Part shown: in pieces, positions 8,038-29,488 of the stretch
How positions within the stretch are numbered: position 1 is the first letter of the stretch
Layout of the letters: every line of letters begins with the position of its first letter
NCBI GenBank assembly: GCA_963804545.1
Contig: CAWDQW010000002.1
Span: 567,411 to 599,410 of the forward strand
Reading direction: 5' to 3'
Origin: an uncultured Acidobacteriota bacterium
Lineage (GTDB): Bacteria; Acidobacteriota; Terriglobia; Acidiferrales; UBA7541
DNA length: 32,000 nucleotides
The notes under the pieces: model-generated
Told to the model about the DNA's origin: nothing
Databases searched by the model: none
What the model saw: only the letters and a program-made list of their open reading frames with translations
Made by a program: the position numbers and the translations under genes

Positions 8038-8070
8038 CCCGGAGTGCGCTGCGCGCCAGGAGGGCGAGAC

Positions 8071-8565: not shown

Positions 8566-8592
8566 TTCCCCGGCTGGTCGGCGTGGCACTCC

Positions 8593-9038: not shown

Positions 9039-9082
9039 CGCGAGCCTCCGTTCCACATATTCTAGCCGATTCTGGCTTGCTC

Positions 9083-9236
9083 AGTCTTCTCCGGTTCTGT
9101 CCTATCTACTCACCGCCCACTATTCACTACTCACTTGCTTCCAATGAGTTTGCTGATCGCCCAAGCCCAAGACCCGCCCTCAAAACCCGAGGACGGGCCA
9201 CCCTCCGCATAGCCAAGAGTCTGGGCAGCCCGTCCC
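9083..9236. repeat. Dispersed repeat family 1, modules b+c
   Basis: About 85-90% identical to 13063-13221. Module b also matches 25765-25820, and module c matches 18561-18632 in reverse. Confidence 0.8.
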
Positions 9237-9336
9237 AGTCTGCATCAAAGAATTTCACGGTACAATGAATGGCAATTGAAAGCGCAACGCTTGATTCCAG
9301 GGCTGGACAGTACACTGAGGCAGCGAGGAGACGAAA

Positions 9337-10623: not shown

Positions 10624-10655
10624 ACGTTCCTGCCCCCAAGTTCCTCCAAGTTCCT
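10624..10655 (+). repeat. Fragment of repeat family 2 (right arm + iterons)
   Basis: ACGTTCCTGCCCCCAAGTTCCTCCAAGTTCC resembles 16008-16036 (GAACGTTCCGTCTGCCCCCAGGTTTCCCCCAAGTTTCCC). Confidence 0.5.
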
Positions 10656-12877: not shown

Positions 12878-12994
12878 ATGAAACATTTCTCTGAGCGCCC
12901 GGGTTTTTCTCGGCTTCGGCGTCGCGCGCATCACCACCGCGCCATGCACCGAGCGACATTCCAGGTGTGCCTAGCGTCCAACGGGCGAGGACGG

Positions 12995-13221
12995 GCGGGT
13001 GGCAGCGCCTTTATTCCCGGGTGGCCTGCCGTTTGCGCCCTTGTCTCATGGAAACCGTGGGGCACTCTTCTCCGGTTCTGTCCTATCTGCTCACCGCCCA
13101 CCATTCACTACTCACTCGCTTCCAATGATTTGCTGATCGACTAGAGCGAACCCAAACGCAAGACCCGCCGTCAATACCCGAGGACGGGGCATCCTCCGCA
13201 TAACTGAGAGTCGGGGCCACC
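12995..13221. repeat. Dispersed repeat family 1, complete copy (modules a+b+c)
   Basis: Contains all three modules found separately at 10267-10336, 9083-9236, 25696-25820 and 18561-18632. Lies between convergent gene ends. Confidence 0.85.
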
Positions 13222-13282
13222 AGGGATTTTGCGATAAGATGACCGCTCTTAGAAGCCCTCCCCTGATATCCAAGCTCGCCGT

Positions 13283-15794: not shown

Positions 15795-15915
15795 CGGATT
15801 TATTTCCGCTCAGTTCGCGCCTTAGCCACGCCTTGGCCAGCCGCCAATCCCGAGGCGGGTGGATCGGACTCCCTTGAATGGTTCTTGCAACCGCTGCGAA
15901 GGATACCACCTCTAG
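15784..15915 (-). pseudogene. 3' remnant of an ECF sigma factor gene (TIGR02999-like C-terminus)
   Basis: The minus-strand frame reads ...PPRDWRLAKAWLRRELSGNKSDEA*, with its stop overlapping the kinase start (ATGAAGCCTGA). There is no room for the N-terminal ~150 aa, because a family-2 repeat starts at 15932. Confidence 0.4.
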
Positions 15916-15931: not shown

Positions 15932-16036
15932 GGAAATATAGGGACAGACGGGAAGTTTTCTCATGTTTCTCTTCGCACGAATCAAAAATTACCGGGAACG
16001 TTCCGTCTGCCCCCAGGTTTCCCCCAAGTTTCCCAG
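15932..16036 (+). repeat. Repeat family 2 (MITE-like inverted-repeat element), copy A
   Basis: GGAAATATAGGGACAGACGGGAAGTTTTCTCA..TTCTCTTCGCA..ATCAAAAATTACCGGGAACGTTCCGTCTGCCCCCAGGTTTCCCCCAAGTTTCCC. Confidence 0.8.
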
Positions 16037-16042
16037 TTTGAT

Positions 16043-16495
16043 TCACCGAGGCAAAGTTGAACTGCCGAACTGCGTCTTCACACGTTTGCGCGTGAACACG
16101 AGCCACCACCACAAACTGATGGGAACCAGCGCCCAAATCGCATACTCAAGGAACGCTGGCGTGAAATCGAACCCGGGATGACGCTTGTAGATCGCTTTCT
16201 CCACTACCGCTGCACACAACGGCACGGTCGCAAGGACGAGCGTCAGCCATCTGGCCCATATTCGGCGCATTAAGAGACCGGTCGCGCTAACTGCACATAC
16301 GATAATGATGGCCAGCAATCCTCCAAAGGCGTACCAGAGGTCCGGCGGGTGGATGTATTCAACCGAATACTCGGCAATCTCGATCCGCACAGCGCGCGCA
16401 AAAAGAATCAGGCCAAGCGCAGCAATCAGAAATTGCAAAACTACGACGGCGATTACCGGCAACGTAGGTAACTTCGCGCTCGATTCATCGTTCAT
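16043..16495 (-). CDS. Hypothetical 4-TM membrane protein
   Basis: Start placed at ATG 16495 (MNDESSAKLPTLPVIAVVVLQ...). Four hydrophobic helices. Overlaps the upstream DUF1311 gene end by 24 nt, suggesting an operon. Confidence 0.6.
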   Translation of the reverse strand: MNDESSAKLPTLPVIAVVVLQFLIAALGLILFARAVRIEIAEYSVEYIHPPDLWYAFGGLLAIIIVCAVSATGLLMRRIWARWLTLVLATVPLCAAVVEKAIYKRHPGFDFTPAFLEYAIWALVPISLWWWLVFTRKRVKTQFGSSTLPR

Positions 16496-16517
16496 TCTTA
16501 TTCTTCCTGCTGTTCCG

Positions 16518-17120
16518 TTAGAGATGCAGTTCTCCGCCATAGATCATGTTGAGCTCACGCATGTGGTCGCGCGTCAGCTTTACCTTGCACTCCAGTTGGA
16601 AGCTCGGTCCGCCCGTGCCGCCCCCGAACTGGTGGAAGGCAGCCGAGCAGGCGACTTCGCGGTATTGCTCCCAGCTTTGCTCCACGCGCTCGAACTCGCG
16701 CTCGAACTCTGGAGACGAGAGCACCGGTCCGGCTATCCCGTTCGCCGGTAGATTCGTCTCAACCGCTGGTTGCCCCGACACTTGCGGAGGCGCAGCGATC
16801 AGTCCCCGGATGAAGCCTTCATAGCTCTTCAGGTTCTGGTCAGTGATGGTTAACTGTTTTCCGTAGCAAAGGTTGAAGTCGTAGTCGGATTGAGCGTCAG
16901 GGCAGTCTCCCGCCTTCTCGCGGGCCATTTCCGTGTCGAAAACTTGTTTTGCTTGGGTTTGCAGACCACGGTGCTGCACCAAATACTGACGATAGACTTC
17001 CTGCTCGGGAGTTGGACCTTTCTTAGGGATTGCCGGATCTTCCTGACCGAGGATGAGCAGCGGAAGTGCAAAGCCGGCGCACAGCGTCGCAGCCCACCTA
17101 CGACCATTTCCCGCATGCAT
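16518..17120 (-). CDS. Secreted DUF1311 (LprI-like) protein
   Basis: Start at ATG 17120 (GGAGG upstream) gives signal peptide MHAGNGRRWAATLCAGFALPLLILG. DUF1311-like segments: CPDAQSDYDFNLCYGKQL... and EQSWEQYREVACSAAFHQFGGGTGGP...C. The ORF-track extension to 17375 runs into the IS. Confidence 0.7.
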   Translation of the reverse strand: MHAGNGRRWAATLCAGFALPLLILGQEDPAIPKKGPTPEQEVYRQYLVQHRGLQTQAKQVFDTEMAREKAGDCPDAQSDYDFNLCYGKQLTITDQNLKSYEGFIRGLIAAPPQVSGQPAVETNLPANGIAGPVLSSPEFEREFERVEQSWEQYREVACSAAFHQFGGGTGGPSFQLECKVKLTRDHMRELNMIYGGELHL

Positions 17121-17258
17121 AGGAACCTCCCTTTTAGCTCGGCTTCGTCCGAATTCTACCACTCTGCCGCGGACTGATTGGATGACGTTGTCGGCTCCTT
17201 CCACCGAGTAAACTTGGTAGCTGTTCGACGACCAAGGCTCGGAAAAAGGAGCCGAGCG

Positions 17259-18324
17259 ATGTTGATTATAGGATGTGATTTCCATACACGCTATCAGCAG
17301 ATTGCCATGGCCAGAGAAGAAACCGCAGAGATGCTTGTGGAGCGCCGATTGGACCACGAAAGCGGCGAAGCTCACGCGTTCTACCGGGGTTTGCAGAGTT
17401 CACAAGAACCAGTCCGCGTGGGCATCGAAGTCGACCGGCCCCATTCACTGGTTCGAGCGTTTGCTCACCGAGCTCGGCCACGAACTGTGGATCGGAGACT
17501 CCGCGAAGATTCGCGCCAGTGAAGTGCGCAAACAGAAGACCGATGAGCGCGACGCCCGGCTCATTCTCGATCTCTTGCTAGCGGAACGCTTCCCGAAAAT
17601 CTGGGTTCCCACACCGGCCGAACGCGATCTCCGACAGTTGCTCTGGCACCGTCACAAGCTCGTGTGCTTGCGCACCATGCTGGGCAACCAGCTGCACGCG
17701 CTGGCTATGAGCGAAGGGCTGTGTCGCAAGGGCAAGCTGTTCACCAAGAAGGGCCGCGTGGAACTCCAGCAGGTGGGGCTGGCTCCCTGGGCCAGCCGCC
17801 GGCGTGAAGAACTTCTGAAACTGCTCGAGCAACTCGAAGCCCCGATCGCGGAGTTGGATCGCGCCGTTCTGGAGCAAGCCCAGCGCCGCGAAGATGCCGT
17901 TTCCTTGATGACCCATCCCGGCATCGGACCGGTTACATCTCTGGCGTTTGTGCTGGCCATCGGTCCGGTAACTCGTTTTTCTTGCAGCAGAAAGATCGCG
18001 AGTTATCTGGGGTTGAACCCGACGGAGGACTCCAGCGGCGGGCGACGGCGGCTCGGAGGCATCAGCAAACAGGGCAACACCATGGTGCGTTGGCTGCTGA
18101 TCGAGGCCGTGTATCCCGCCGTGCGGAAGGATCCCGCGCTGCGGCAGGACTATCAACGATTGAAATTCCGTAGAGGACACGCGGTGGCCAAAGTGGCCAT
18201 TGCGCGCAAGTTGGCTGTGCGTATGTACTGGATGCTCCGCAGTAGAGCAAATTACGCGCAGCTGGTTCGCAGGCAAGGCAGCCCGGGGGCCACCCTGGTG
18301 GACGCGAGTCCATCGCTAGGCTGA
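17259..18324 (+). pseudogene. IS110-family DEDD transposase, frameshifted near 17430
   Basis: The N-terminus MLIIGCDFHTRYQQIA...VRVGIE is in frame 3 (AAGGAG RBS at 17246-17251). It continues as STGPIHWFERLLTELGHELWIGD...KTDERDARLILDLL...GISKQGN in the 17275-18324 frame. One extra nt lies between GAA and TCG. Confidence 0.85.
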
Positions 18325-18542
18325 TTGGGCGCCTTGCTCCCGCGAGCGATCGCGGGGTCTGAAAAATGAATCATGGTGCCTCTTAGGGGAGACCGAATAG
18401 ATGGTTGGTGGAACCAGAATCCACCGCAAGATTCACGCAGCGAGCCTTGGTCGAAATGAAGGAAAAGGAAAGAGAAAAGATCCTTATAGGTGAAGAGAAA
18501 AACGAACCCTCGCGGCTCGTGAACCCGAGGTGTTTCTTGACA
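18325..18542 (+). ncRNA. Candidate seek/bridge RNA region in the IS 3' non-coding end
   Basis: Position only: a long non-coding right end is characteristic of IS1111-type elements. Local hairpins: CCCGCGA-GCGA-TCGCGGG at 18340-18357 and GGTGGA..TCCACC at 18407-18425. No covariance evidence. Confidence 0.3.
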
Positions 18543-18560
18543 GAGCCGACAACGTCATAG

Positions 18561-18632
18561 AGGGTGGCCCAGACTCTTAGTTATGCGGTGTGTGCCTCGT
18601 CCTCGGGTTTTGAGGGCGGGTCTTGGGTCTAG
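18561..18632 (-). repeat. Dispersed repeat family 1, module c (reverse orientation), abutting the IS right end
   Basis: The reverse complement reads CCCAAGACCCGCCCTCAAAACCCGAGGACG...CCGCATAACTAAGAGTCTGGGCCACC, matching 9165-9234 and 13150-13221. Confidence 0.75.
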
Positions 18633-18805: not shown

Positions 18806-18838
18806 CGGGGCGATTCGCCTCGCTTGCTCTCCGATTTT

Positions 18839-19059
18839 GTAGGGGCCGGGCTTCAGCCCGGCGTTTTTTGGACTTCCTCCCGAAATTCGCCGTGCGGTAA
18901 ATCCTGCTTCTCTCTTTCTGTTGTCCACGGGTTCTCGCACTTTTCTGCCTTCGATGTGTAAACAACGAGGCCAAGACGCCGGCCTGAAGGCCGGCCTCTA
19001 CACAGGTTCCTACCCGCAACAACCAGGATTAGGAGGCCGACCTGAAGGTCGGCCCCTAC
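18839..19059. repeat. REP hairpins, 3 copies: 18839-18863 (+), 18977-19001 (-), 19035-19059 (-)
   Basis: GTAGGGGCCGGGCTTCAGCCCGGCG and variants (GTAGAGGCCGGCCTTCAGGCCGGCG, GTAGGGGCCGACCTTCAGGTCGGCC). Each has a GTAG head plus an 8-bp palindromic stem with compensatory changes. Confidence 0.8.
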
Positions 19060-19092
19060 ACACGCCACTACATCTCTCTTAGGACGCATACT

Positions 19093-19788
19093 ATGCCAAA
19101 GACAAAACTCAACCCCAAGCTCCTCTGGATCCAGTTTGAAGATATTCTCGTCCCGCGTCTCGGCCTAACCGTTTGGGACCGCGCGGTCTACCACTATCTC
19201 CTGCGCCATTCTCTTCTCATCGGCAAGCGCCGTCTGCACTTCGCGGTGATGTCCGTGGCCCACACTCTGCGTCTCTCCAATGCCCCGGTGCGCCAAGCCG
19301 TACGCCGCCTCGATGAGCTCGGCGCTCTCCGCCTCCTCGAACGCAGCAAAACCGGCCATCTCGTCGAAATGCACCTGCCCGAACACATCCGTGCGCTTCA
19401 CGAAGACGATGGTCCGCCCGTCCTCACGGCCGCCGACGAAGCTCGCCTCTCCTCCAAACTCGAGGCCACCGATTTCATGAGCACCTGGGCGCTTCGCAAG
19501 ACCATTCACGATCGCGATCGCGGCGCCTGCTTTCACTGCCTTCGCCGCACACCCGCCCACGTCCGCTGCCTCGACCATGTCGTTCCTCGCGCCCGCTTCG
19601 GACGCAATTCCTACCGCAACCTCGTCTCCTGCTGCATCGAGTGCAACACCCTCAAAGGCGACATGCCCGCCCCCGATTTTCTCCGCCTCCTCTACCGCAA
19701 AGGCCGCCTAACCGCCGTCGAACTCGACGCCCGCCTCGCCGCCCTAAAAGACCTAGCCGCCGGCAAACTCCGCCCCGCGGGCTTCTGA
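19093..19788 (+). CDS. wHTH + HNH endonuclease domain protein
   Basis: HNH motif CFHCLRR...LDHVVPRARFGRNSYRNLVSCCIECNTLKG. N-terminal MarR/DnaD-like winged-helix-looking segment (VAHTLRLSNAPVRQAVRRLDELGALRLLE). Confidence 0.8.
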   Translation: MPKTKLNPKLLWIQFEDILVPRLGLTVWDRAVYHYLLRHSLLIGKRRLHFAVMSVAHTLRLSNAPVRQAVRRLDELGALRLLERSKTGHLVEMHLPEHIRALHEDDGPPVLTAADEARLSSKLEATDFMSTWALRKTIHDRDRGACFHCLRRTPAHVRCLDHVVPRARFGRNSYRNLVSCCIECNTLKGDMPAPDFLRLLYRKGRLTAVELDARLAALKDLAAGKLRPAGF

Positions 19789-19836
19789 TGCCGCAATCGC
19801 CCGCTGCTTTTGCCGTCAGGCTTTTATGGCCGTTTT

Positions 19837-19971
19837 GTAGCGCCGGGCTTCAGCCCGGCATCTGCTGGTAGCTGTTTTGTAGGGGCCGGGCTTTAGCCCG
19901 GCGTTTTCTGAAGCGAAGCCCAGCCCCTACAAACTCACCAGGCAGTTGCTGGGCTGAAGCCCAGCCTCTAC
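19837..19971. repeat. REP hairpins, 4 copies: 19837-19860 (+), 19879-19903 (+), 19913-19930 (- half), 19948-19971 (-)
   Basis: Same GTAG-headed palindrome. 19879-19930 forms an inverted REP pair (REPIN-like). The last copy overlaps the RAYT stop codon. Confidence 0.8.
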
Positions 19972-20486
19972 AAAGTCGTCTTTGCCTTCCACGGAGGCGT
20001 CCACTTTGTCCCGGAAGACCGCTTCATCCAATCAATAGTTTGCGACCCCGACAAAGGGTAAAGACGCGGGTCACTGCAAAGCCCCTTCCGTACGGGATTC
20101 CACCAAATGTAGCAGGCCACATCCTCCGGGACCTCTATCGGCCGCAGGATGTGATCGTAATAGCGCATTTGCCAGAGCCGCTGGCCATGAGTTTTTTTGA
20201 ACTCATAGCCCGTGCGCTGTTTGAAGGCATCGACGAACCGCACGAGATCGCAGGTGTCCGAGAGACCTTCACAAAGGAAATGAACATGGTCGGGCATCAC
20301 GCAATAGGCATGCAGAGAAAAATTCCGTTGCGCGGCAGTTTCCACGAGATGACGGAGCAGCTATTGCCCCCGCAACCTATCCGCGAAAAAAGTCGCGCGC
20401 CTCTCGGTCCCAACGGTTACGAAATAATGCTGGCGACCGCGGTAGTGTTCCGCAGGACGTCGCAGCCGTTTTTTAAAAAAGGCCAC
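19968..20486 (-). pseudogene. REP-associated tyrosine transposase (RAYT, IS200/IS605 Y1 family) with in-frame TAG at 20361-20363
   Basis: HUH motif HAYCVMPDHVHFL and Tyr motif LWQMRYYDHILR in ORF 19968-20345. The same frame upstream reads (GTG 20486) VAFFKKRLRRPAEHYRGRQHYFVTVGTERRATFFADRLRGQ*LLRHLVETAAQ..., the expected RAYT N-terminus. Confidence 0.8.
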
Positions 20487-20589
20487 GTCAAAAGGCTAAC
20501 ACCAAACGTTCCTGTACGCGCTGTGCTGCGACCAGTTCCGGCAGTTGTCCCGTACGCGCCGGGCTGCGACTAGTTCCGGTGGTTGTCCT

Positions 20590-20977
20590 GTAGGGGCCGG
20601 GCTTTAGCCCGGCGTTTTCGGTTTGTCGGCGCCGGGCTTCAGCCCGGCGCTTTTTGAAGCTAAGTCCTTGCCGTCAGGCCGATGTAGGGGCCGGGCTTTA
20701 GCCCGGCGGTGTTGGTAACTGTTTCGTATGTGCCGTGCTCTAGCCCGGCGCTTTCCGGCAGCAGCATTGTATGCGCCGGCCTTCCGCCCGGAAAAACTCA
20801 TCACGAACCCCGTTCCTCGTGCAACGACCGACGGCTGCGGCCAGTGCTCCGAGTCTCAATTTCAGAACGGGAGGGACTCGCTTCCCATGGATTTGCTGAT
20901 CTTCGGTTTGTAGAGGCCGGGCCTTAGCCCGGCGCTTTCAGGCAGCCGTTTTGTAGGGGCCGGGCTTTAGGCCGGCA
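20590..20977 (+). repeat. Array of 7 same-orientation REPs: 20590, 20625, 20684, 20726, 20769, 20910, 20953
   Basis: Copies of GTAGGGGCCGGGCTTTAGCCCGGCG with irregular spacing of about 10-120 nt. Two are degenerate (20726-20750, 20769-20791). Confidence 0.85.
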
Positions 20978-20988
20978 CTTTCGCGGAC

Positions 20989-21080
20989 GAAATATTGGAC
21001 AGACGGGAAATTTCCTCCTGCTTCTCTTCGCAATCAAAAACTACAGGGAACGTTCCGTTTGTCCCCAAGTTCACAAGTTC
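20989..21080 (+). repeat. Repeat family 2, copy B
   Basis: GAAATATTGGACAGACGGGAAATTTCCTCCTGCTTCTCTTCGCAATCAAAAACTACAGGGAACGTTCCGTTTGTCCCCAAGTTCACAAGTTC. Confidence 0.8.
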
Positions 21081-21106
21081 AACCTCCAATCAAGCTGTTG
21101 TATCAT
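21078..21106 (+). promoter_or_regulatory. Possible promoter of the small-protein operon: TTCAAC, 17 nt, TATCAT
   Basis: TTCAAC at 21078-21083 and TATCAT at 21101-21106 with a 17-nt spacer, just upstream of RBS GGAGGG (21114-21119). Confidence 0.35.
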
Positions 21107-21123
21107 TTCGCTTGGAGGGTAAT

Positions 21124-21291
21124 ATGTCTGGAAAGGCAAAGAAGAGTACTGTGACCGAGACTTATGGAATCTGCTGGGGCTGCGGGGCGATCATGAAGAG
21201 CAAGCCCGTTAGGTATCGCGGTCACAGTTATCACGAGGATTGTGCGGAGAAGGCGAGGAAAGAATCACGGGCGAAAAGCAAGTCTTATTGA
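21124..21291 (+). CDS. 55-aa basic Cys/His protein (LIM-like half zinc finger spacing)
   Basis: MSGKAKKSTVTETYGICWGCGAIMKSKPVRYRGHSYHEDCAEKARKESRAKSKSY has the pattern C-x2-C-x16-H-x2-C. GGAGGG RBS. The ORF-track 5' extension lies in the repeat. Confidence 0.6.
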   Translation: MSGKAKKSTVTETYGICWGCGAIMKSKPVRYRGHSYHEDCAEKARKESRAKSKSY

Positions 21292-21308
21292 TGAGGAGGG
21301 GGGCAACC

Positions 21309-21590
21309 ATGAGTCTTGTAAAACGTCAGATGGAGCAGAACCAAACGAAGCGGGATGTGGCATTGGGGATTGCTATAGAGGCAGGAGCGCTGGGCTCTTG
21401 TGCAATCCATGAAGATACGATCATCGATGGTTCAGGCGAAGTCGAAGAGGCGTATGAATTGGGAGACGCCAAGTTCGCGGATGGGTCATTATCGAATATT
21501 TTCGACAGCCAAGACGAAATGAAGGAATACATCAAAGCGGTTGTCGAGGAGAATGGTGGCGCTGAATGCAATCAGTGCTCGAAGGACTAA
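21309..21590 (+). CDS. 93-aa acidic hypothetical protein with C-terminal CxxC
   Basis: GAGGAGGGGGG at 21294-21304 precedes ATG 21309. Sequence MSLVKRQMEQNQTKRDVALGIAIEAGALGSCAIHEDT...ECNQCSKD. Confidence 0.65.
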   Translation: MSLVKRQMEQNQTKRDVALGIAIEAGALGSCAIHEDTIIDGSGEVEEAYELGDAKFADGSLSNIFDSQDEMKEYIKAVVEENGGAECNQCSKD

Positions 21591-22174
21591 ATCATCTCTG
21601 GCACGCGATCCTCTGGTGGTCAAATCAAAATTCGGGATTCGTTACGCTGCTGGGCTGCATACTCGGTATCCCCGGCGTATTCTATGTGGGCTGGAGCATT
21701 CGAACATACGTTGTCCAAAAGAATAAAGACGACATCAAGGAACAGCGGGAAAAAGCAGATCGGGCACTCGCCTTGGAACAGATGCAGTGGCGGGGAATCT
21801 ACAGAATCTCGAAGGAAATTCTCTATCATGCATCCCTTTTGCATGCAAACTCGTTGCAGCACAGCCAGCCAGCGCGGCAACTAGCGGCTATGGGGAGAGA
21901 TGTTACTGCCCCGTATCAGCAAGCGGGTATCGGCTTGGTCGCTGCCATCGGCGGTCTCCTCATGGAACTGACCTTGATTCCGCAATGTCAGCAAACGCTC
22001 TCGCTTGTCGAATTTTTTGCTGTCAAATACCATTCGACGGATCAGAGAGCAAGTGCGAAGTTTATCGAAGAATTGCAGGATATAAATGCTATGGTTCTGG
22101 CGAAGGCTGGTGGGAAGCCGCTGGAACTACCCGAATCGTGGAAGGACAAGATTTATCCGGGGATCGCACAATAG
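21566..22174 (+). CDS. 202-aa hypothetical protein with a single N-terminal TM helix
   Basis: TM segment FVTLLGCILGIPGVFYVGWSI followed by a helical-looking soluble part. Overlaps the previous gene by 25 nt. Confidence 0.65.
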   Translation: MQSVLEGLNHLWHAILWWSNQNSGFVTLLGCILGIPGVFYVGWSIRTYVVQKNKDDIKEQREKADRALALEQMQWRGIYRISKEILYHASLLHANSLQHSQPARQLAAMGRDVTAPYQQAGIGLVAAIGGLLMELTLIPQCQQTLSLVEFFAVKYHSTDQRASAKFIEELQDINAMVLAKAGGKPLELPESWKDKIYPGIAQ

Positions 22175-22201
22175 GCGAGAAATGAGGTTGGAGGAGCGAC
22201 G

Positions 22202-22636
22202 ATGGGCGAGCCGATGGACAGGTCGAGACGGGTGTTCGGGCAACTAACCACATTCGAAAAGGCGTTTCCCGCCCTCGAAGTTGCAACCATCTCATCATAC
22301 GAAGACGACGAAGGTGTATACAATTTCGAGACTGATGAATCCCAACGCAGAACTTTTGGAGAAGGAGTGCCATTTAGGGAGGGTCTCATTCCCTGTAGGA
22401 ATCCCCGTTGCAGAAGGGGCGGATATGAAGTTGACGACAGCCTGTATGAGATGGTGCGTGAAAAATCTACCGAGAAGGTATTTGTGAGAAAGTGCCCCGG
22501 CGATGAAGGCTCTCCAAAAGGCAGAAAACGGGGAGATAGGTGTGGGAACGTCCTTCACTACCGCTTAAGGATAAAGTACAAGCCCGAAGGTTTGCCGCAA
22601 GAAAACTTGGTAGAATCGAAGCAACGACCTCTGTAA
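22202..22636 (+). CDS. 144-aa hypothetical four-Cys (zinc-ribbon-like) protein
   Basis: GGAGGAG RBS at 22190-22196. Cys pattern CRNPRC...KCPGDEGSPKGRKRGDRCGN. Confidence 0.7.
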   Translation: MGEPMDRSRRVFGQLTTFEKAFPALEVATISSYEDDEGVYNFETDESQRRTFGEGVPFREGLIPCRNPRCRRGGYEVDDSLYEMVREKSTEKVFVRKCPGDEGSPKGRKRGDRCGNVLHYRLRIKYKPEGLPQENLVESKQRPL

Positions 22637-22676
22637 CTCATTCGGATCAGAGCGTGGTAGGGTAACGATTCCGGCC

Positions 22677-22955
22677 ATGGCGACAACCGTCCAGCTACCG
22701 AACAATAGATTCGAAGCCCCTCTTGTTATCGGTGATCTTGTTAATCTAGTGCTTCGGGCTGAAGACGGCGCTACGGGACCAGTTTGGCGCCTCGACGACA
22801 TCAAAGCTGGAAGGGCAGGAGAGTTTGCATACGCCGGAGACATCGAGGAAGCCAAGGCGGTAGCCGAAACAGCCGCTAGGGCACACGCCCATCATTTTCT
22901 CATGCGTGCTAGCAGTAACGAAAAAATTCCCCAAATAGTTTGGCATCAAATATGA
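22677..22955 (+). CDS. 92-aa hypothetical protein
   Basis: Last ORF of the same-strand cluster, with a weak RBS. No recognisable motif. Confidence 0.5.
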   Translation: MATTVQLPNNRFEAPLVIGDLVNLVLRAEDGATGPVWRLDDIKAGRAGEFAYAGDIEEAKAVAETAARAHAHHFLMRASSNEKIPQIVWHQI

Positions 22956-22970
22956 CGGTTCGAGTTTCGC

Positions 22971-23150
22971 CCGGGGAAACCGGGGGGAACCGGGGACGGG
23001 AAACCGGGGAAACCGGGGACGGAAACCGGGGGCAGACGGAACGTTTCCTACAATTTTTTTATTCGCGCGAGCAGAAACTCGAGGAAACTTCCCGCCTGTT
23101 CCCATATTTCCCATATTTCCCCCAATATTTCCCCATACTTCCCATATTTC
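22971..23150 (-). repeat. Repeat family 2, copy F (largest, both arms with iteron arrays)
   Basis: About six GGGGAAACC(G)-type units at 22971-23030. Arms GGGGGCAGACGGAACGTTTCC and GGAAACTTCCCGCCTGTTCCC. Five CCCATATTTC-type units at 23101-23150. Lies between convergent stops at 22955 and 23229. Confidence 0.85.
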
Positions 23151-23228
23151 GCAACGGCTACATCGCTTTTTTATTACGTTCGCAGCGAATTTGAAGCGAA
23201 GGCGAAGAGGGCGAGGTTGGTGGGATCC

Positions 23229-23921
23229 CTATACTTGGCCAGAATGCTTTACGTTCCGCACTTTTAGATCGCGTCGGACAGCTTCCAAGAGATGCTTGTA
23301 GTCGGTGACTGGAAAACTAGTGTGGGCTTCCGCGCTAAAGAGGCCACTGTAAAAATTTACTACGCGAATTCCATTGTCGATCAAAGCCTTTATTTCCGTG
23401 AACGGGAAGAAGTTTTGTGCGGTAAAACCTACCAGGTCCAACGCGCTTGAGCGGCTGCGATGTGCAAAATACATGTGCCGCCACGTTATGAGCTTCTTGA
23501 CTGAAGGGTCCGCGTCGCTAACGGCTATCGAGTCTTTTTGAAGTTGCGCGGCGTCTGGCTTCCGAGGCGCAGCCGCAAGTGAATCGACGAACGGATTAGC
23601 TTTCAATCTTTCACGGAAGTTTGGCTCATCGAAGAAATGGAGATTCGCTTCGATTGTGTCCAAGAGGTTCGTAAGAGTGAGATTCGGTTTGGTGTCCATC
23701 GGATCGTAGGCCCGGCAGAGTCGCATAAGAGCGGCATCCATGAGAGCACGGTTCGTCAAAGTCCAGAACGCAGCGGATTGGTTGAACTCCACTTGGTAGT
23801 CAGGGATGGCGGCGTTGAGGTCTTGATGAAGGCGAAAGTAGTCACGCGCGTCAATGAGGTCGTCCGCCAAAGACCGTAGCAGTCGCTTAAATTCAGCGGA
23901 GTCGGCAACCTCGATCTTCAT
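23229..23921 (-). CDS. HEPN-domain protein, AbiU2-like (putative abortive-infection RNase)
   Basis: 230-aa ORF with GAGGAG 8 nt before the ATG. WRHMYFAHRS gives R148-x5-H154 (Rx4-6H HEPN signature with the ..AH ending seen in Abi-type HEPNs). The N-terminal half LMRLCRAYDP....LTLTNLLDTI resembles AbiU2-type proteins as I recall them. Confidence 0.55.
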   Translation of the reverse strand: MKIEVADSAEFKRLLRSLADDLIDARDYFRLHQDLNAAIPDYQVEFNQSAAFWTLTNRALMDAALMRLCRAYDPMDTKPNLTLTNLLDTIEANLHFFDEPNFRERLKANPFVDSLAAAPRKPDAAQLQKDSIAVSDADPSVKKLITWRHMYFAHRSRSSALDLVGFTAQNFFPFTEIKALIDNGIRVVNFYSGLFSAEAHTSFPVTDYKHLLEAVRRDLKVRNVKHSGQV

Positions 23922-24030
23922 TTTCGTTACTCCTCAACGGCCATTGTGCCACGTCTTAGTCCCTACTTCCTCGGCGCACCGCGTTCCTCGATCCGCTTCA
24001 GAATCGCCTCAGCCTCCTGGATACGTGTTG

Positions 24031-24116
24031 GAATACGGGGATAGACCGGCAGTTTCCTCACCCTTCTCCTCGCAATCGAAAACCAAGGAAGCGTTCCGGC
24101 CTGTTGCCAAGTTTTC
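24031..24116 (+). repeat. Repeat family 2, copy D
   Basis: GAATACGGGGATAGACCGGCAGTTTCCTCACCCTTCTCCTCGCAATCGAAAACCAAGGAAGCGTTCCGGCCTGTTGCCAAGTTTTC. Confidence 0.75.
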
Positions 24117-24143
24117 AAAAATGCGAAGCTTGCTCCTACGATT

Positions 24144-24224
24144 GGAAACCCGGGAAATACGGGGACAGGCGGGAAGTTTTCTCATACTTCTCTTCGCAAT
24201 CAAGAACTACAGGAGCGTTCCGCC
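24144..24224 (+). repeat. Repeat family 2, copy C (tandem with D)
   Basis: GGAAACCCGGGAAATACGGGGACAGGCGGGAAGTTTTCTCATACTTCTCTTCGCAATCAAGAACTACAGGAGCGTTCCGCC. Confidence 0.8.
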
Positions 24225-24401
24225 TTTTCTCTGCGCGCCACGGCCGCTCCCGCTACAACGCTCGGCGCAGCTCTTCACGGATAACCCGGCGAAGCGTTTT
24301 CTCGAACGGCTCATTCGAGCTTTCCACGTGCCGCCCCAGACATTCGTTGATGAGCGTTTGCTAGTTGCCTCCGGCGGCGCCAACCGCTCGGCGAGGAACG
24401 A

Positions 24402-24521
24402 TCAAGACAAACTGAAAAAGTATCGCGGGTTTTCCACGGTAATGGTGTGAATGTTGCGATCGGATACACCGATCTGTTCAAGATACGGAATCAGCTTGCG
24501 CGTGGTGAACAGCATCCCATC
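24402..24521 (-). pseudogene. C-terminal 39-codon remnant of a phosphotriesterase-homology (PHP/PTE family amidohydrolase) gene
   Basis: DGMLFTTRKLIPYLEQIGVSDRNIHTITVENPRYFFSLS* parallels the E. coli Php C-terminus as I recall it (LLTTFIPQLRQSGFSQADVDVMLRENPSQFF). Upstream codons are family-2 repeat sequence. Confidence 0.6.
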
Positions 24522-24522
24522 A

Positions 24523-24588
24523 GAGAAACCCGGAGAAACCCGGGAGAAACCCGGGGACAGACGGGAAGTTTCCTCACCCTTTTCTTCG
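24523..24588 (+). repeat. Repeat family 2, copy E (left half: 3 iterons + arm)
   Basis: GAGAAACCCGGAGAAACCCGGGAGAAACCCGGGGACAGACGGGAAGTTTCCTCACCCTTTTCTTCGG, truncated after the core start. Confidence 0.75.
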
Positions 24589-24830
24589 GCGGGTGGGACG
24601 CCATTCAGATATGAATCTGAGTAGCGAAAAATACTCCCTTTTTCCTTCGCCATGCAACTGTGCCGGAGGGCACAGGAAATGCCACCAGAATTTCGCAGCC
24701 ATTCGCTTCGCGAATGCTTAGGTGCGCCCTTAAGCCTACTTGCGTAAACTTTGAATATCGCCCATTTGGGGCTAGCCGAAATAACGACTGCATTCACGAT
24801 TAGCCGTGTTGAACAACCAAGGAGACAAAA

Positions 24831-25679
24831 ATGAGTAATAATAAAGTTTGGTTTGTTACCGGCGCAGGCCGGGGACTCGGCATCAAGATTGCCCAGAAGG
24901 CGTTGGCCGCCGGGCACTCCGTTGTGGCGACTGGCCGTAACCCGCACGCGGTCTTGAAGGCGGTTGGCGCTCACGAAAACCTATTAACAGTTGCGCTAGA
25001 TATCACCGACGCCGAGGCTGCGGCCAAAGCAGCGGAAGCTGCCGTTCTCCGCTTCGGGCGCATCGACGTCCTGGTCAACAACGCAGGCAATTTCTACGCG
25101 GGTTATTTCGAAAACATTCGTCCAGATCATTTCCGGGCTCAGATGGAGACCAATTTCTTTGGTCCTCTTAACGTCACGCGCGCTATCCTTCCGATCATGC
25201 GAGCGCAGCGGAGTGGCCAGATTATAACGGTAACCTCGCTCGCGGGCCTCATCGGTCAGGAATTCGTTGTTGCCTATGCTGCCTCCAAGTTCGCGCTGGA
25301 AGGTTGGATGGAATCGCTCCGTTTCGATGTGGCGCCTTTCGGCATTCGCACCCTGGTGGTTGAGCCTGGGTTCTTCCGTACCGAACTACTGGTCGAAGGC
25401 GCATCGACGATATGGCCGGATATGGCCGTCGAAGACTACGCCGAGCGAACCAAACAAACGATCACGGCTTGGTCCGGCATGAACGGTCAGCAAGGAGGCG
25501 ATCCCGCCAAACTCGCGGCTGCAATTGTGAGGCTCTCGGATTCCGATAAGCTCCCACTGCGATTTATTGCGGGTTCCGACGCTATGGCGGCTGTAGAAGC
25601 CAATCTCAAGACCATCCAGGAGCAGATAGACGCACATCGCGACTTATCTGCGTCTCTTATGTTCGACAAAGGGCAATGA
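24831..25679 (+). CDS. SDR-family short-chain oxidoreductase
   Basis: VTGAGRGLG cofactor motif and YAASKFALEG catalytic YxxxK. AAGGAG RBS. Confidence 0.9.
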   Translation: MSNNKVWFVTGAGRGLGIKIAQKALAAGHSVVATGRNPHAVLKAVGAHENLLTVALDITDAEAAAKAAEAAVLRFGRIDVLVNNAGNFYAGYFENIRPDHFRAQMETNFFGPLNVTRAILPIMRAQRSGQIITVTSLAGLIGQEFVVAYAASKFALEGWMESLRFDVAPFGIRTLVVEPGFFRTELLVEGASTIWPDMAVEDYAERTKQTITAWSGMNGQQGGDPAKLAAAIVRLSDSDKLPLRFIAGSDAMAAVEANLKTIQEQIDAHRDLSASLMFDKGQ

Positions 25680-25695
25680 TTTGGAGCCTTGTGAG

Positions 25696-25820
25696 GCGGG
25701 TGGCAGCGCCTTTATTCCTGGGTGGCCTGTCGTTTGCGCTTTTGTCTCATGCAAACGGTGGGTCACTCTTCTCCGGTTCTGTCCTATCTACTCACTGCCC
25801 ACTATTCACTACTCACTCGC
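25696..25820. repeat. Dispersed repeat family 1, modules a + truncated b
   Basis: Matches 12995-13120. Sits between the convergent SDR and ribF genes and supplies the last codons of ribF. Confidence 0.8.
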
Positions 25821-26788
25821 GCGTTCAGCAACGAACGGCGGGTGCGAAGGCGGGTGAAGAATTTGTTGGCGGTGGCTATGTCTTTCGCGATTTGGGCGCG
25901 GAGTTCTTCGGGGCCGCTGAATTTTTTTTCTTCGCGGAGGCGCTTCCAGAAATGGATTTCGATGCGGCCCGGGGAGATTTCCGGAACGGGCTCGAGGATA
26001 TGCGTTTCGACGCTGAGGGACGAACCGTTGAAGGTGGGGCGCACGCCGATATTTGTGACCGAACGGCGAGTGCGCGATTCGCCCTCGAGAAGCGTGCGCG
26101 TGATGTAGACGCCGCGAGCGGGCAGGAGTTCCTGCTCGGGAGCGAGATTCAACGTGGGAAAGGTGAAGCGGCGGCCAGTGCCGGTGCCCGGGACGACTTT
26201 ACCGGTGAGGACGAAGGGACGGCCGAGAAGGCGGGCGGCATGAGAAACGTCACCTGTGGCGATCTCGCGGCGGATGATGGTGCTGGAGACGATTTCGTTT
26301 TTGCAGACGACGGGCGGGAGAATGACGACGTCGAAACCGCGGTCGGCGCCGAGCAAGAGAAGCATCCGCGCGTTGCCGGCCTGTTTGTGGCCGAAGCGGA
26401 AATTTTCGCCGACATAAACGGCGCGAACGCTCAGATCGCGGACGAGGATTTGGTCCACGAATTCTTCGGGAGTGAGTCTTGCGAGGTCGTGAGTGAAGGG
26501 GAGGACGAGGGCGGCTTCGATGCCGAGTTCGGCGAAGCAGCGCAGGCGCTGCTCGGTGGTGGAGACGCGCAAGGGAGCGGATTCCGGGCGAAGAACTTTT
26601 TGAGGTAGCGGATCGAAGGTAAGAGCTGTGGGTACAGCTTGGATTTCGTGGGCGCGTGCGACGGAGGCGCGAAGGATGGCCTGGTGGCCGAGATGAATGC
26701 CATCAAAATTGCCAATGGCGAGGGTGCTGCCGGTTTGCGATTTGCCATAACGAATCGACCACGCCAGCGGCGTGGAGAAAATCTCGAG
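25802..26788 (-). CDS. ribF: Bifunctional riboflavin kinase / FMN adenylyltransferase; start codon unresolved
   Basis: GNFDGIHLGHQ (encoded at 26681-26713), GRRFTFPTLN and ETHILE motifs. The frame is open upstream, but the first ATG/GTG/TTG is TTG 26572, downstream of the adenylyltransferase motif. The N-terminus by homology is about LEIFSTPLAW (26788). Confidence 0.8.
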   Translation of the reverse strand, partial: LEIFSTPLAWSIRYGKSQTGSTLAIGNFDGIHLGHQAILRASVARAHEIQAVPTALTFDPLPQKVLRPESAPLRVSTTEQRLRCFAELGIEAALVLPFTHDLARLTPEEFVDQILVRDLSVRAVYVGENFRFGHKQAGNARMLLLLGADRGFDVVILPPVVCKNEIVSSTIIRREIATGDVSHAARLLGRPFVLTGKVVPGTGTGRRFTFPTLNLAPEQELLPARGVYITRTLLEGESRTRRSVTNIGVRPTFNGSSLSVETHILEPVPEISPGRIEIHFWKRLREEKKFSGPEELRAQIAKDIATANKFFTRLRTRRSLLNARVSSE

Positions 26789-27636
26789 CGCAGCGGAGGA
26801 CGTGGCAGCGACGGAATTTGTGGAAGCCCCGGCGCGGCGGATTCGTCCACGGTCACTTCGAGTTCGAGGCCGTCGTAGGCGAGATGGACGTTCGAATGGC
26901 CGAGATGGCGCAGGCGTTCGGTGGTTTCGGCGTGAGAGAGATCGTGGGCGATGTGCGTGAACCAGGCGCGGCGCGGGTTGAGTTTTTTGATCAGCGCGAG
27001 AGCTTGATCCACGGTTTGATGCATGGGGTGAGGAATGTCGCGCAAGGCGTCGATGATGAGTTCATCGAGATCGTGCAATAGGGCGAGCGAGGAATCGGGC
27101 AGCGAGCTGAAATCCGTCAGATAAGCCGCGCGGCCGAAACGAAAACCGAGGACTTCCATGTCGCCGTGGAGAAGCGGAATGGGAGTGAACGTGATGCCCA
27201 GGAGTTCGAACGGTTCCTTGGCTTCGCGAAGGGTGACGCTCGGAATGGAACTGAGCTTGGGCTTGCCGTCGAAGACATACGCAAAGGCGCGGCGGATGAT
27301 TTCGAAAGTCTCGGCGTTCGAATAGACGGGAAGCGCCGTTTGCTGGCGCAGATTGTAGGGACGAATGTCGTCGAATCCCATAATGTGATCTGCGTGTCCG
27401 TGGGTGAGGAGAATTGCATCGAGGCGATCGACTCCGGCGCGCAGGCCTTGCTGGCGAAAATCAGGAGTGGTGTCGATGACGACGTTTTGGCCATTGCGGG
27501 AGAGGAGCAGGGAAGGGCGGAGCCGCTTGTCGTGGGGATCTTGCGAACTGCAGACGCGGCAGTGGCATCCGAGCGAGGGAACGCCCATGGACGTGCCGGA
27601 GCCGAGTACGGTGATTTTTAGCGGAGCCGAGGGCAT
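26431..27636 (-). CDS. MBL-fold metallo-hydrolase; homology ends near 26841, and the ORF runs on for about 136 codons over ribF in another frame
   Basis: LLTHGHADH motif. The typical ~260-aa MBL protein ends ...HLAYDGLELEV. The tail SAAPGLPQIPSLPRPPLRSRFSPRRWRGRF... is Pro/Arg-rich and looks out of frame. Confidence 0.8.
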   Translation of the reverse strand: MPSAPLKITVLGSGTSMGVPSLGCHCRVCSSQDPHDKRLRPSLLLSRNGQNVVIDTTPDFRQQGLRAGVDRLDAILLTHGHADHIMGFDDIRPYNLRQQTALPVYSNAETFEIIRRAFAYVFDGKPKLSSIPSVTLREAKEPFELLGITFTPIPLLHGDMEVLGFRFGRAAYLTDFSSLPDSSLALLHDLDELIIDALRDIPHPMHQTVDQALALIKKLNPRRAWFTHIAHDLSHAETTERLRHLGHSNVHLAYDGLELEVTVDESAAPGLPQIPSLPRPPLRSRFSPRRWRGRFVMANRKPAAPSPLAILMAFISATRPSFAPPSHAPTKSKLYPQLLPSIRYLKKFFARNPLPCASPPPSSACAASPNSASKPPSSSPSLTTSQDSLPKNSWTKSSSAI

Positions 27637-27700
27637 GCTGAGAATGCTGAAACTCGTTCGAAAGCCGGGCCGAATTCGCTGTTACAAAGATTGCGGCATT

Positions 27701-28177
27701 TTAGGGCCGCGTCTTGGCTTTTGCCTGCGTTGCGGCTTGGGCCGCGACTGCTTGATTGACCTCCAGATAGGTCATTTTCAATTTGCCCAAAAGATCGAGC
27801 AAGAGAGTGTCTTCCTCGGGCGCGAGATTTCCTTTGGTCTTTTCGTGCAGGGAATCCAGCATGTCGATCAACTCATGGGCGGCTTCCGGATCGATCACGG
27901 GCTGGCCAGTGCGCGGGTCGGCGTAAGCGCCCAGAACCATGGCCGCGTTACTGCCCAGCATGCGGACCAGATTCTCGAAAGGCACGGAACGTTTGGGAAT
28001 TTCGACGGGAGCTGATGGCGCGGCGGGCTTGGGAGCTTCGGCGACGGGATGCAGCTTTTCCTCGCGCTTGGCCTCGCGTTCCTTTTCTTCCGCGGCTTCC
28101 TTGCGGAGTTCGCCTTCAGCGGTAAAGGGGCGGCGGTCGATGACTCGGAAAGATTCTTCTTGCTTGTGATCAGTCAA
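27701..28177 (-). CDS. DUF1844 domain protein
   Basis: FENLVRMLGSNAAMVLGAYADPRTGQPVIDPEAAHELIDMLDSLHEKTKGNLAPEE matches the DUF1844 pattern. TTG start. Confidence 0.75.
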   Translation of the reverse strand: MTDHKQEESFRVIDRRPFTAEGELRKEAAEEKEREAKREEKLHPVAEAPKPAAPSAPVEIPKRSVPFENLVRMLGSNAAMVLGAYADPRTGQPVIDPEAAHELIDMLDSLHEKTKGNLAPEEDTLLLDLLGKLKMTYLEVNQAVAAQAATQAKAKTRP

Positions 28178-28353
28178 GGGACAATCCTCTTCGCTATTTG
28201 TCTGGATAAGTTTAGCACGGGTAGGAGAATTCGGAAGCGGCGCAATTCGGAGTGCAATTGGATACAGCGGAACTAAAAAGGGAAAGATGGGTTAAATAAA
28301 ATGGGTTAAGCTTTCGGAAAGGGAAGTCACAATTCGATGATAGGGGGAAGCGA

Positions 28354-29262
28354 ATGCGAGTAACGAAGCTCATGACGAAAATTCTGTCCACCATACTGAC
28401 GCTGGCGCTGCTGGTAGGCTGGCTGCCCGCGGCGGGCCTGGCGCAGGACCAGGACCAGAGTGCACCTCCACCCTCTTTTTCGCCGGACCAACTGGACAGG
28501 CTCACGTCACGGATCGCGCTGTATCCGGACCCGCTGCTGGCGCAGGTTTTGGCAGCCGCGACTTTTCCCGACCAAATTCCCGACGCCGCGAAATGGGCGG
28601 ATGAGCATCACTATTTGACGGGCGACCAACTGGCCACGGCGATTACGGAAGACCATTTGCCGTGGGATCCGGCGGTGCAGGCGATGCTGCCGTTTCCTAC
28701 CGTTTTAGACACCATGGCTTCGGATGTGAATTGGACGACGGACCTGGGAAATGCATTTTTGGCGCAGCGGCAGGACGTGATGGACGCGGTGCAGAGAATG
28801 CGGCAGAAGGCCAAGGATTTTGGCTATCTGCGGAGCAATGGACAGATCGTGGTGAGCGGCGGTCCGTACATTGCGATCGAGCCGGTGAATGCGGCGTTCA
28901 TTCCGGTGCCGTATTACGATCCACTCGTGGTTTATGCGGCGCCGCGGCCGGGGTTTGTGGTTGGGGCGGCGATTGGTTTTGGGTTCGGCGTGACGATTGG
29001 AACCTTCTTCCGTCCATGGGGATGGGGCTACAGCCGGTTCGACTGGGGCGCGCATGGGTTCTTCATCTATAACCGGCCTTGGGGCCGCGTTTGGGGGAAC
29101 CGGTTCACGTATGTACATGCGTATGGCCCAGGAGTGCGGCGTTGGGATGCGCCGCGCCGCGTGGAAGGGCATGCCTTGATACAGCGCAGCGCACACGAGC
29201 GGAATGCATGGCGAGAAGGGCGCGCGCGAACGGAAGAGCATCCGCATCCTCACAAGCCATAA
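28354..29262 (+). CDS. DUF3300 domain protein (secreted)
   Basis: Signal peptide, then LDRLTSRIALYPDPLLAQVLAAATFPDQIPDAAKW...LPWDPAVQAMLPFPTVL, the typical DUF3300 pattern. Confidence 0.8.
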   Translation: MRVTKLMTKILSTILTLALLVGWLPAAGLAQDQDQSAPPPSFSPDQLDRLTSRIALYPDPLLAQVLAAATFPDQIPDAAKWADEHHYLTGDQLATAITEDHLPWDPAVQAMLPFPTVLDTMASDVNWTTDLGNAFLAQRQDVMDAVQRMRQKAKDFGYLRSNGQIVVSGGPYIAIEPVNAAFIPVPYYDPLVVYAAPRPGFVVGAAIGFGFGVTIGTFFRPWGWGYSRFDWGAHGFFIYNRPWGRVWGNRFTYVHAYGPGVRRWDAPRRVEGHALIQRSAHERNAWREGRARTEEHPHPHKP

Positions 29263-29292
29263 CAGCCCTAACACGATAATCAGATACCTGGG

Positions 29293-29325
29293 AAACGCCT
29301 CGGCTTCGCCGGGGCGTTTCTGTTT
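29293..29325 (+). terminator. Intrinsic terminator after the DUF3300 gene
   Basis: AAACGCCTCGG-CTTCG-CCGGGGCGTTT forms an 11-bp stem with one G-U pair, followed by CTGTTT. Confidence 0.55.
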
Positions 29326-29417
29326 ACAAGGCGCCGCGAGCCGGTTGGGAGCGCCCTCCTAGCGTCCAGGATTTACCTCAGGCTCAGGAGATAGGAGTGG
29401 ACCGCGCGGTCCCAAAC

Positions 29418-29488
29418 GAAAACTTCCCGCCTGTCCCCATATTTCCCATATTCCCCCCCCCATAATTCGTCCCCATATTTCCATATTT
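29418..29488 (-). repeat. Repeat family 2, copy G (left half, reverse)
   Basis: The plus strand reads GAAAACTTCCCGCCTGTCCCCATATTTCCCATATTCCCCCCCCCATAATTCGTCCCCATATTTCCATATTT. Confidence 0.75.

Follow-up and report, generated by a model that had tools for sequence, protein, structure and literature searches.

REPIN-like repeats of the RAYT/TIRYT kind in an Acidobacteriota chromosome and their transposase partner in related genomes

Introduction

REPINs, doublets of repetitive extragenic palindromes (REPs) that form hairpins, consist of two inverted conserved ends and a spacer (Bertels and Rainey 2011, PMC3116915, PMC3337134). When REPINs of P. fluorescens are excised, about 6 bp of this conserved end stay in place (PMC3116915). 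TIRtrons are a second described group, in which genes resembling those of REP-associated tyrosine transposases (RAYTs) lie between long terminal inverted repeats (TIRs) and not between GTAG-tagged REPs; these genes are referred to as TIRYT genes (Di Nocera, De Gregorio and Rocco 2013, PMC3733652). According to that account, several TIRs flanking TIRYT genes share the motif GGGGWSAS, the most sharply defined TIRYT group is found in Acidobacteria (Koribacter, Terriglobus, Acidobacterium, Granulicella), and some TIRs form moderately abundant families that occur as dimers or clusters. The subject of this work is an inverted-repeat element present in several copies in a 32,000-nt stretch of DNA from an uncultured Acidobacteriota bacterium (assembly GCA_963804545.1, contig CAWDQW010000002.1, positions 567,411 to 599,410), referred to in its entirety as the window.

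Full copies of the element consist of two 21-nt arms, inverted around a core, with tandem units on the outer sides. The layout is [GGGG(AC) plus 5-7 nt units]n, GGGGACAGRCGGGAAGTTTYC, a variable core, GGAAACGTTCCGTCTGYCCCC, and [units]n. A single-gene element coding for a RAYT-type Y1 (HUH) tyrosine transposase has these arms as its terminal repeats. The element belongs to the already described RAYT/TIRYT-REPIN kind and is not a new cassette-assembling system. What characterises such repeats was found here: a flanked Y1 gene with HUH and Tyr motifs, non-coding copies with inverted ends, the GGGGWSAS start, and movement.

The likeness to the TIRtrons of PMC3733652 comprises a RAYT-like Y1 gene between long inverted non-GTAG repeats, a host of the same phylum, and repeats that are found in non-coding dimers and clusters too. 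The arm start GGGGACAG fits GGGGWSAS, with positions 1-8 conserved at 91-100%; the comparison with the published repeats, those of Koribacter ORF1552 included, is based on this motif and the description. The hosts differ, being Acidoferrales-like soil bacteria here, and tandem arm-tip units, several core classes and naturally emptied sites are apparently not described in that paper. A preliminary description of the window, made from its sequence alone, had regarded the element as unassignable to any named family, which no longer holds given the flanked RAYT-type gene and the fit to the GGGGWSAS class of acidobacterial TIRYT genes. The same description had set a match to a known repeat against its own proposal; such a match exists, at the level of kind.

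REPIN-RAYT systems share with the element the inverted conserved ends around a spacer, the capacity to form a hairpin, the non-autonomous state, a transposase gene with the same ends, solo ends as decay products, and excision that leaves about 6 bp of the end. They differ in having a GTAG tag and a palindromic single arm; here, moreover, the core is replaceable by unrelated sequence and the copies are concentrated in a plastic region. The REPs and bacterial interspersed mosaic elements of E. coli, with their enzyme TnpA-REP (Messing et al. 2012, PMC3479197), resemble the element in the Y1 HUH enzyme cutting extragenic palindromes in single-stranded form, which is predicted here, and in unit clusters of alternating orientation. 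Repeat architecture and tag are different, and a search of PDB chain sequences with the transposase gave no significant match. IS200/IS605 elements likewise have a Y1 transposase, no target duplication and single-strand hairpin ends. In contrast to these, the protein found here scores against the RAYT model and not against that of IS200, the ends are long mutual inverted repeats and not two differing subterminal hairpins, and the non-coding copies are in massive excess.

The partner transposase

Metagenomes were scanned with a 21-mer, which matched at least 120 loci. Family counts were taken over 143 loci plus the window, and individual loci are cited by their L numbers. A 17-mer scan of genomes was too short, yielding at least 119 loci that were mostly chance matches and included about 23 true Acidobacteriota loci. 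Viral contigs scanned with the arm gave no match.

In the search for a partner, all open reading frames (ORFs) of the element-selected loci were clustered. The largest cluster is a spurious ORF running across the element, and the second is an HNH protein. A further ORF family from six arm-selected loci adjoins solo arms and matches Pfam Y1_Tnp (E=4e-8). Its sole NCBIfam match is the REP-associated tyrosine transposase model (REP_Tyr_transpos, E=1.8e-15, profile positions 9-146 of 146), with a score of 57 bits that lies below the 80-bit equivalog cut-off; no IS200 model matched. The protein contains an HUH motif (SNHVHLVV, HVH) and a Tyr motif (RYAELNPV). Thousands of relatives of this partner of about 235 aa exist, some of them named REP-associated tyrosine transposase by JGI.

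The gene is enclosed by the arms. In L154, L176 and L193, a 236-aa gene starts 17 nt past an arm that is preceded by GGAATCG units and ends at or before an inverted arm, GGTTCC coming next and the units lying outside. The right flank of L176 departs from those of L154 and L193 immediately after CCCCGGTTCC. The reverse test gave the same picture: five homologues chosen by protein alone from five other contigs, 72-79% identical, are all flanked by arms with their GGGG ends outward, one of them on a 5.56-Mb Acidoferrales chromosome. In L244, three GAAACCCGGG units on one side and three AGGTTTCCC units on the other correspond to the unit flavours of the window. The transposase gene thus lies between two inverted arms, units outward, in eight independent loci (L154, L176, L193, L240, L241, L242, L244, L245), the downstream arm of L241 being split by an IS110-family insertion. 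Since the arms flank a Y1 gene in related genomes, the non-coding copies are this element with its gene swapped for a short core. The earlier statement that the window encodes no cognate enzyme was borne out; the partner is found in other genomes.

Upstream of the transposase gene of L242 (5854-5945; also in L243), two mini-palindromes stand in tandem, each with 12-nt stem halves joined by just 7 nt (GGGGACAGACGTGACGTTGCCGTCTGTCCCC).

Copies in the window

The arm pattern ACAGRCGGGAAGTTTYC was scanned over the window with up to three mismatches and with 100 shuffles as control. Eight matches were obtained against 0.26 expected, a number reached in 0 of 100 shuffles. Five full copies (A, B, F, D, C), two solo ends and one fragment were delimited by repeat finding, multiple alignment and sequence inspection. 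All five full copies were recovered by nhmmer with a five-copy seed, at E-values between 1e-18 and 1e-22, as was the half copy at 24553. All eight copies listed in the preliminary description were found at their positions by sequence inspection and alignment:

10624-10655, plus strand: fragment, R-arm tip (ACGTTCCTGCCCCC) plus two CCAAGTTCCT units
15932-16036, plus strand: copy A, full, nhmmer E=1.9e-22; L arm 15940-15960, R arm 15994-16014, core of 33 nt between them; a single left-hand unit (GGAAATAT) and two right-hand units (CCCCCAGGTTT / CCCCCAAGTTT)
20989-21080, plus strand: copy B, full, nhmmer E=2.6e-22; L arm 20995-21015 (GGACAGACGGGAAATTTCC), R arm 21046-21066; right-hand side with two AAGTTCA(C/A) units; a five-gene block has its first gene 44 nt downstream
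22971-23150, minus strand: copy F, full, nhmmer E=1.7e-19; R arm on the plus strand 23028-23048, L arm on the minus strand 23083-23103; the two largest unit arrays, 22971-23032 (GGGG(AC)GGAAACC type) and 23099-23150 (CCCATATTT type)
24031-24116, plus strand: copy D, full, decayed, GGGGATAGACCGGCAGTTTCC ... GGAAGCGTTCCGGCCTGTTGCC, three mismatches, nhmmer E=1.3e-18
24144-24231, plus strand: copy C; L arm 24161-24181, two units of unlike flavour (GGAAACCCG, GGAAATACG), R arm decayed (CAGGAGCGTTCCGCCTTTTCTC)
24523-24588, plus strand: solo L arm, nhmmer E=4e-7; arm 24553-24573, three GAGAAACCCG units, about 15 nt of core
29418-29488, minus strand: solo L arm; arm 29418-29438, about five ATATGGG-type units

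The orientations of the full copies and solo arms, in order, are mixed (+,+,-,+,+,+,-). Both half copies are present where they had been placed; the correction to be made is that the arms at 24553 (+) and 29418 (-) are both of the L type. Past the short core of the former, the DNA is unrelated. Homology ends directly past the latter, and a 38-nt piece similar to part of the HNH gene (19170-19207) comes next, at 29381-29418. Copy C has an ortholog in L095 (24152-24333 against L095, 91%).

Tandem Repeats Finder detected the units at 22971-23032 (period 9-10, about 5.5 copies), 23099-23150 (period 9, 5.3 copies) and 24523-24555 (period 10-11, 3.1 copies), with shorter runs at 16010-16034, 29434-29456 and 10636-10655. 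The proposed tandem units of about 10 nt, with the largest arrays in copy F, are therefore seen by this program as well, at periods of 9-11. The lower-GC stretch noticed before is also real, with 49-54% GC over 21000-24500 versus 56-63% on either side.

Arm conservation and a possible host function

The 143 loci and the window contain 134 full copies and 103 solo arms. Spacers of the full copies range from 22 to 119 nt, with modes at 33 and 57. The arms are 33 nt apart in the window type and 57 nt apart in the soil type that dominates; other types have distances of 22-30 or about 117 nt. Between subfamilies the cores are unrelated. On one side the arms have the consensus GGGGACAGACGGGAAGTTTCC; on the other, in the same reading sense, it is GGGGACAGACGG(A/G)ACGTTTTC. 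Arm positions 1-12 are conserved at 91-100%, and at position 15 an A-type arm is paired with a C-type arm in 115 of the 134 full copies. Because the arms are kept and the centres are replaceable, this pattern points to recognition of the arms by a protein.

Relatives of the window region are metagenome-assembled genomes (MAGs) of Candidatus Acidiferrum/Acidoferrales. Near-identical copies of a lineage occur in differing flanks, and in at least seven genomes copies are clustered in a plastic region downstream of rseP-fur. Copies are also common behind ordinary genes. Identical arms were observed in MAGs labelled Dormiibacterota and Pyrinomonadaceae (L010, L017, L020), by either horizontal spread or binning error.

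A host-serving role, in which the element terminates transcription in both directions, stabilises mRNA or serves a nucleoid or regulatory protein as a binding array with a period of about 10 bp, and is mobile only incidentally, is the strongest competing explanation, albeit an unlikely one. Copies A and F, and one in L107, directly follow stop codons, the phasing of GGGRA motifs is close to one helical turn, half copies persist, and REPs are credited with such roles in the literature (PMC3733652). Copy F in particular lies between convergent stop codons at 22955 (+) and 23229 (-), as the preliminary description had stated. The termination in both directions that it considered possible at this position was not borne out, however: neither F nor A was picked up in a scan for terminators, and the total number of sites was no higher than in shuffles. 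Rfam gave no match over the whole window at the gathering threshold, and in 20900-24700 at E<=10 three weak sub-threshold matches, none at the copies. The pairing of the long arms is not unusually stable either, as DNA folding of the copies (z-scores +0.4 to -2.7) is not clearly better than that of shuffles. Unit sequences that differ by lineage are hard to fit to one binding protein. Host functions of this type would in any case be compatible with a mobile element.

Emptied sites, scars and tandem units

The clearest trace of movement is an orthologous locus that is occupied in L186 and L146 and emptied in L128. The emptied site reads ...GGAAATCAGGGAC-TG-TCCCCCTCGG..., or with its flanks ...CGGAAATCA GGGAC TG TCCCC CTCGGTCCC TGAAAACC..., and the missing stretch lies between the sixth base of one arm and the seventh-last base of the other. 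Of the signs that the preliminary description had proposed to look for, an emptied site was found in L128, and a target-site duplication is absent there. Four more solo scars, GGGAC(N1-4)GTCCC with unit-like flanks, are present in L130, L195, L207 and L223. A regular expression for such scars matched seven times in 0.75 Mb of element loci versus twice in 0.72 Mb of control loci. Emptied site and scars point to breakage at GGGGAC^ and ^GTCCCC.

In L241 (6740-8200), the IS110-family insertion sequence (IS) downstream of the Y1 gene interrupts the arm at precisely CCGTCT^GTCCCC, where the scar boundary also lies. The repeat arm is thus a target for that IS.

The absence of a target-site duplication at the occupied and emptied locus (L186/L128) also bears on the view that the copies are classical miniature inverted-repeat transposable elements (MITEs), moved by cut-and-paste and derived by internal deletion from a DDE-transposase IS or a Tn3-like element with GGGG-initiated TIRs. 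Terminal inverted repeats of 21 nt starting with GGGG, a length of about 100 nt, the intergenic position and the many copies and solo ends would all suit a MITE. But the sole coding element with these arms carries a Y1/HUH and not a DDE enzyme, and the IS110-family gene of the window has its own ends and lies in a different repeat, making this origin improbable. Mobility itself, the non-autonomous kind proposed at first, is supported by near-identical copies in unrelated flanks, by the occupied and emptied states of one locus, and by the autonomous partner elsewhere.

The units consist of GGGG(AC) plus 5-7 nt on the left, in mirror arrangement on the right. Judged by their sequence, the decamer "iterons" are duplicated arm tips joined to 5-7 lineage-specific bases, i.e. 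junction copies, and do not form a protein-binding array of their own. Unit number changes between close relatives: L128 and L159 differ by one 12-nt unit in flanks that are otherwise 100% identical, and L022 and L123 also differ. At a vapC-linked solo arm found in four contexts, exactly 6-7 nt (GTGCCG) are kept outside GGGG. An insertion-into-scar model would reproduce the arrangement GGGGAC / tag / GGGGACAGAC...GTCTGTCCCC / tag / GTCCCC. Slippage is an equal candidate for the unit arrays because left and right unit counts correlate only weakly. This weak correlation also speaks against strict nesting of units. The outermost heptamers were considered as an extension of the palindrome and discarded, as their complementarity is 2.70 of 7 positions versus 2.68 in shuffled pairs.

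A model for the element

The copies are most likely REPIN-like non-autonomous elements of the RAYT/TIRYT kind with a partner encoded outside the window, a reading to which we assign a probability of roughly 0.8. The transposase would act in trans, on single DNA strands whose two arms have paired into a stem of 12 perfect bp followed by an imperfect part, with the conserved A/C asymmetry marking left and right. The strand is predicted to be broken and rejoined about 6 nt inside the outer ends, at GGGGAC^AGAC... and ...GTCT^GTCCCC. The element would leave and enter without target duplication, its arm tips staying behind as a short palindrome. Units may be gained and lost quickly, by repeated breakage and rejoining at one spot or by slippage. 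Copies would accumulate in intergenic spacers of the plastic region and act there as recombination junctions, not as carriers of cassettes.

Several observations weigh against this model. All arm-flanked Y1 transposase loci lie outside the window, so an active partner in the source organism is assumed. Unlike classical REPs, which are imperfect palindromes of 20-40 nt with an unpaired GTAG or CGTC tag at one end, the arm has no such tag (CGTC occurs internally only), and a single arm is not self-complementary and forms no hairpin. The hairpin of paired arms is not thermodynamically exceptional, and no compensatory changes were found in the arms, whose conservation is one of sequence and does not count as evidence of structure. 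Among the matches listed in the scanned genomes, exact arm matches are clustered in one region and not dispersed. The scar centres are variable (T, AGT, TGGT), which makes the cleavage positions approximate, and the scars could reflect host processing of a palindrome. Finally, the correlation of left and right unit counts is low (Pearson 0.33, Spearman 0.13).

A bolder version of the model, which we regard as doubtful, takes the unit arrays as a record of repeated visits, with excision scars as the preferred landing site and the junctions as portable joints by which soil Acidobacteriota swap segments, for instance the kinase segment described below. Layers of "tip + lineage tag" would then build up on both sides of a scar.

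Soil Acidobacteriota metagenomes contain this repeat very commonly, and Rfam has no entry for it; the analysis names it and provides it with a partner enzyme. Repeats of this type interrupt assemblies and mislead annotation, for example through the spurious ORF cluster. The emptied sites and one-unit polymorphisms predict where a RAYT-type enzyme cuts. To our knowledge, RAYT-type cleavage positions have been little described beyond E. coli and Pseudomonas. No new mode of cassette assembly is revealed.

Neighbouring genes and recombination junctions

The second-largest ORF cluster in the element-selected loci is represented in the window by the following gene:

19093-19788, plus strand: winged helix-turn-helix (wHTH)-HNH gene, generic HNH domain match alone

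It could be supposed that this nuclease services the element, cutting emptied sites for a homing-like copying. Homologues are present in 19 of the 143 arm-selected loci, far above expectation for a single-copy gene, and a 38-nt fragment of the gene is fused to the solo arm at 29418. We consider such a role very improbable: arms never enclose the gene, which lies at distances of 0.13 to 2.3 kb from the nearest one; in most cases a GTAG-type REP belonging to another family comes directly after it; it is missing from the transposase loci L240-L245, and its domain match is generic.

Integron-like sites, at which a recombinase captures and shuffles promoterless cassettes beside a conserved gene, are the least probable explanation of all: attC sites do resemble the element as hairpin-capable sites in which conserved outer boxes or arms enclose a variable centre and an unpaired base or mismatch is conserved, and the clustering downstream of rseP-fur in at least seven genomes, the position between small accessory genes (e.g. 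toxin-antitoxin) and the synteny breakpoints exactly at element edges would fit, but no integrase or other tyrosine recombinase was found among about 35 window ORFs scanned, the RYYYAAC/GTTRRRY boxes (and any R-box consensus) are absent from the arms by inspection, orientations in the window are mixed, a Y1 transposase gene lies between the repeats in eight loci, and cassette homologues occur elsewhere without the sites.

The RAYT/TIRYT reading leaves room for a passive role of the copies as recombination junctions, which is possible. Elements coincide with synteny and recombination breakpoints. A 2.6-kb kinase segment (13261-15852) is 96% identical, in inverted orientation, to a segment of the MAG MFD03346.bin.2.107, compared with 70-84% for rseP/fur of the same contig. 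In that MAG, element copies bound the segment on both sides, to the base; a third contig, L123, has one of the junctions and not the other. The difference in identity suggests a recent exchange of the segment between lineages. The elements mark and perhaps promote breakpoints and are not part of the cassettes.

The proposal that an iteron site assembles or mobilises cassettes was not upheld, given the nature of the units and the occurrence of cassette homologues without arms. The five-gene block and the HEPN gene were rejected as element-carried cassettes on the latter ground: where the operon gene 21566-22174 and the HEPN gene have homologues in five other contexts, no arms lie within 5 kb of these. 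Three of the five contexts look like islands of an integrative or phage-like type, as they contain serine recombinases or many small ORFs. A cargo unit between inward-facing arms at 24523-29488 was discarded as well, both arms being of the L type and the interior from 25833 on being syntenic beside the HNH gene in arm-less relatives.

Genes that possibly ride with arms were observed in two cases: a vapBC pair (L148), linked to a solo arm in four contexts, and a secreted-protein gene located between two full copies in inverted orientation (L057, 409-1134). On the 3.3-Mb contig of L246, an island of small ORFs contains a homologue of the five-gene block (7415-8938), with a stand-alone Cas1-domain gene about 2 kb away.

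Gene context and other repeats of the window

The window is bacterial chromosome, with the core genes mgtE, Nramp, uppS, cdsA, dxr, rseP and fur over 1-8.6 kb. A mosaic region follows after 8.6 kb. It includes a Ser/Thr kinase, an IS110-family element, the wHTH-HNH gene, a RAYT pseudogene with GTAG-type REPs, the five-gene block with a protein like lambda ea8.5, an AbiU2 HEPN gene, a phosphotriesterase remnant, a short-chain dehydrogenase/reductase (SDR), and a protein with a metallo-beta-lactamase fold. Two of the genes are degraded:

19968-20480, minus strand: RAYT pseudogene, in-frame TAG near 20364, 77 bits against NCBIfam REP_Tyr_transpos
24402-24974: phosphotriesterase remnant, Pfam PTE at the C-terminus, adjoining the half copy at 24523

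Truncated genes had been placed next to copies A and E in the preliminary description. The phosphotriesterase remnant is real, although it adjoins the half copy at 24523 and not E; the sigma-factor remnant beside A could not be confirmed, the adjoining ORF (16043-16540) having no significant Pfam match.

A second, classical REP family (TGTAGGGGCCGGGCTTCAGCCCGGC, at least nine copies) occupies 18835-20984 around the minus-strand RAYT gene and has the palindromic, tagged form of classical REPs. As this family has its own RAYT gene in the window, two distinct REP-RAYT-type systems coexist in the lineage. A plus-strand ORF at 20040-20573 is a misreading of the RAYT pseudogene on the opposite strand.

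The IS110-family element (17185-18559) has the inverted ends ATGACGTTGTCGGCTC / GAGCCGACAACGTCAT and adjoins a third repeat family. The latter contains CTACTCA heptads and a 66-nt block, and occurs four times in the window (9072-9238, 12984-13221, 18562-18628, 25695-25832) as well as in many related loci.

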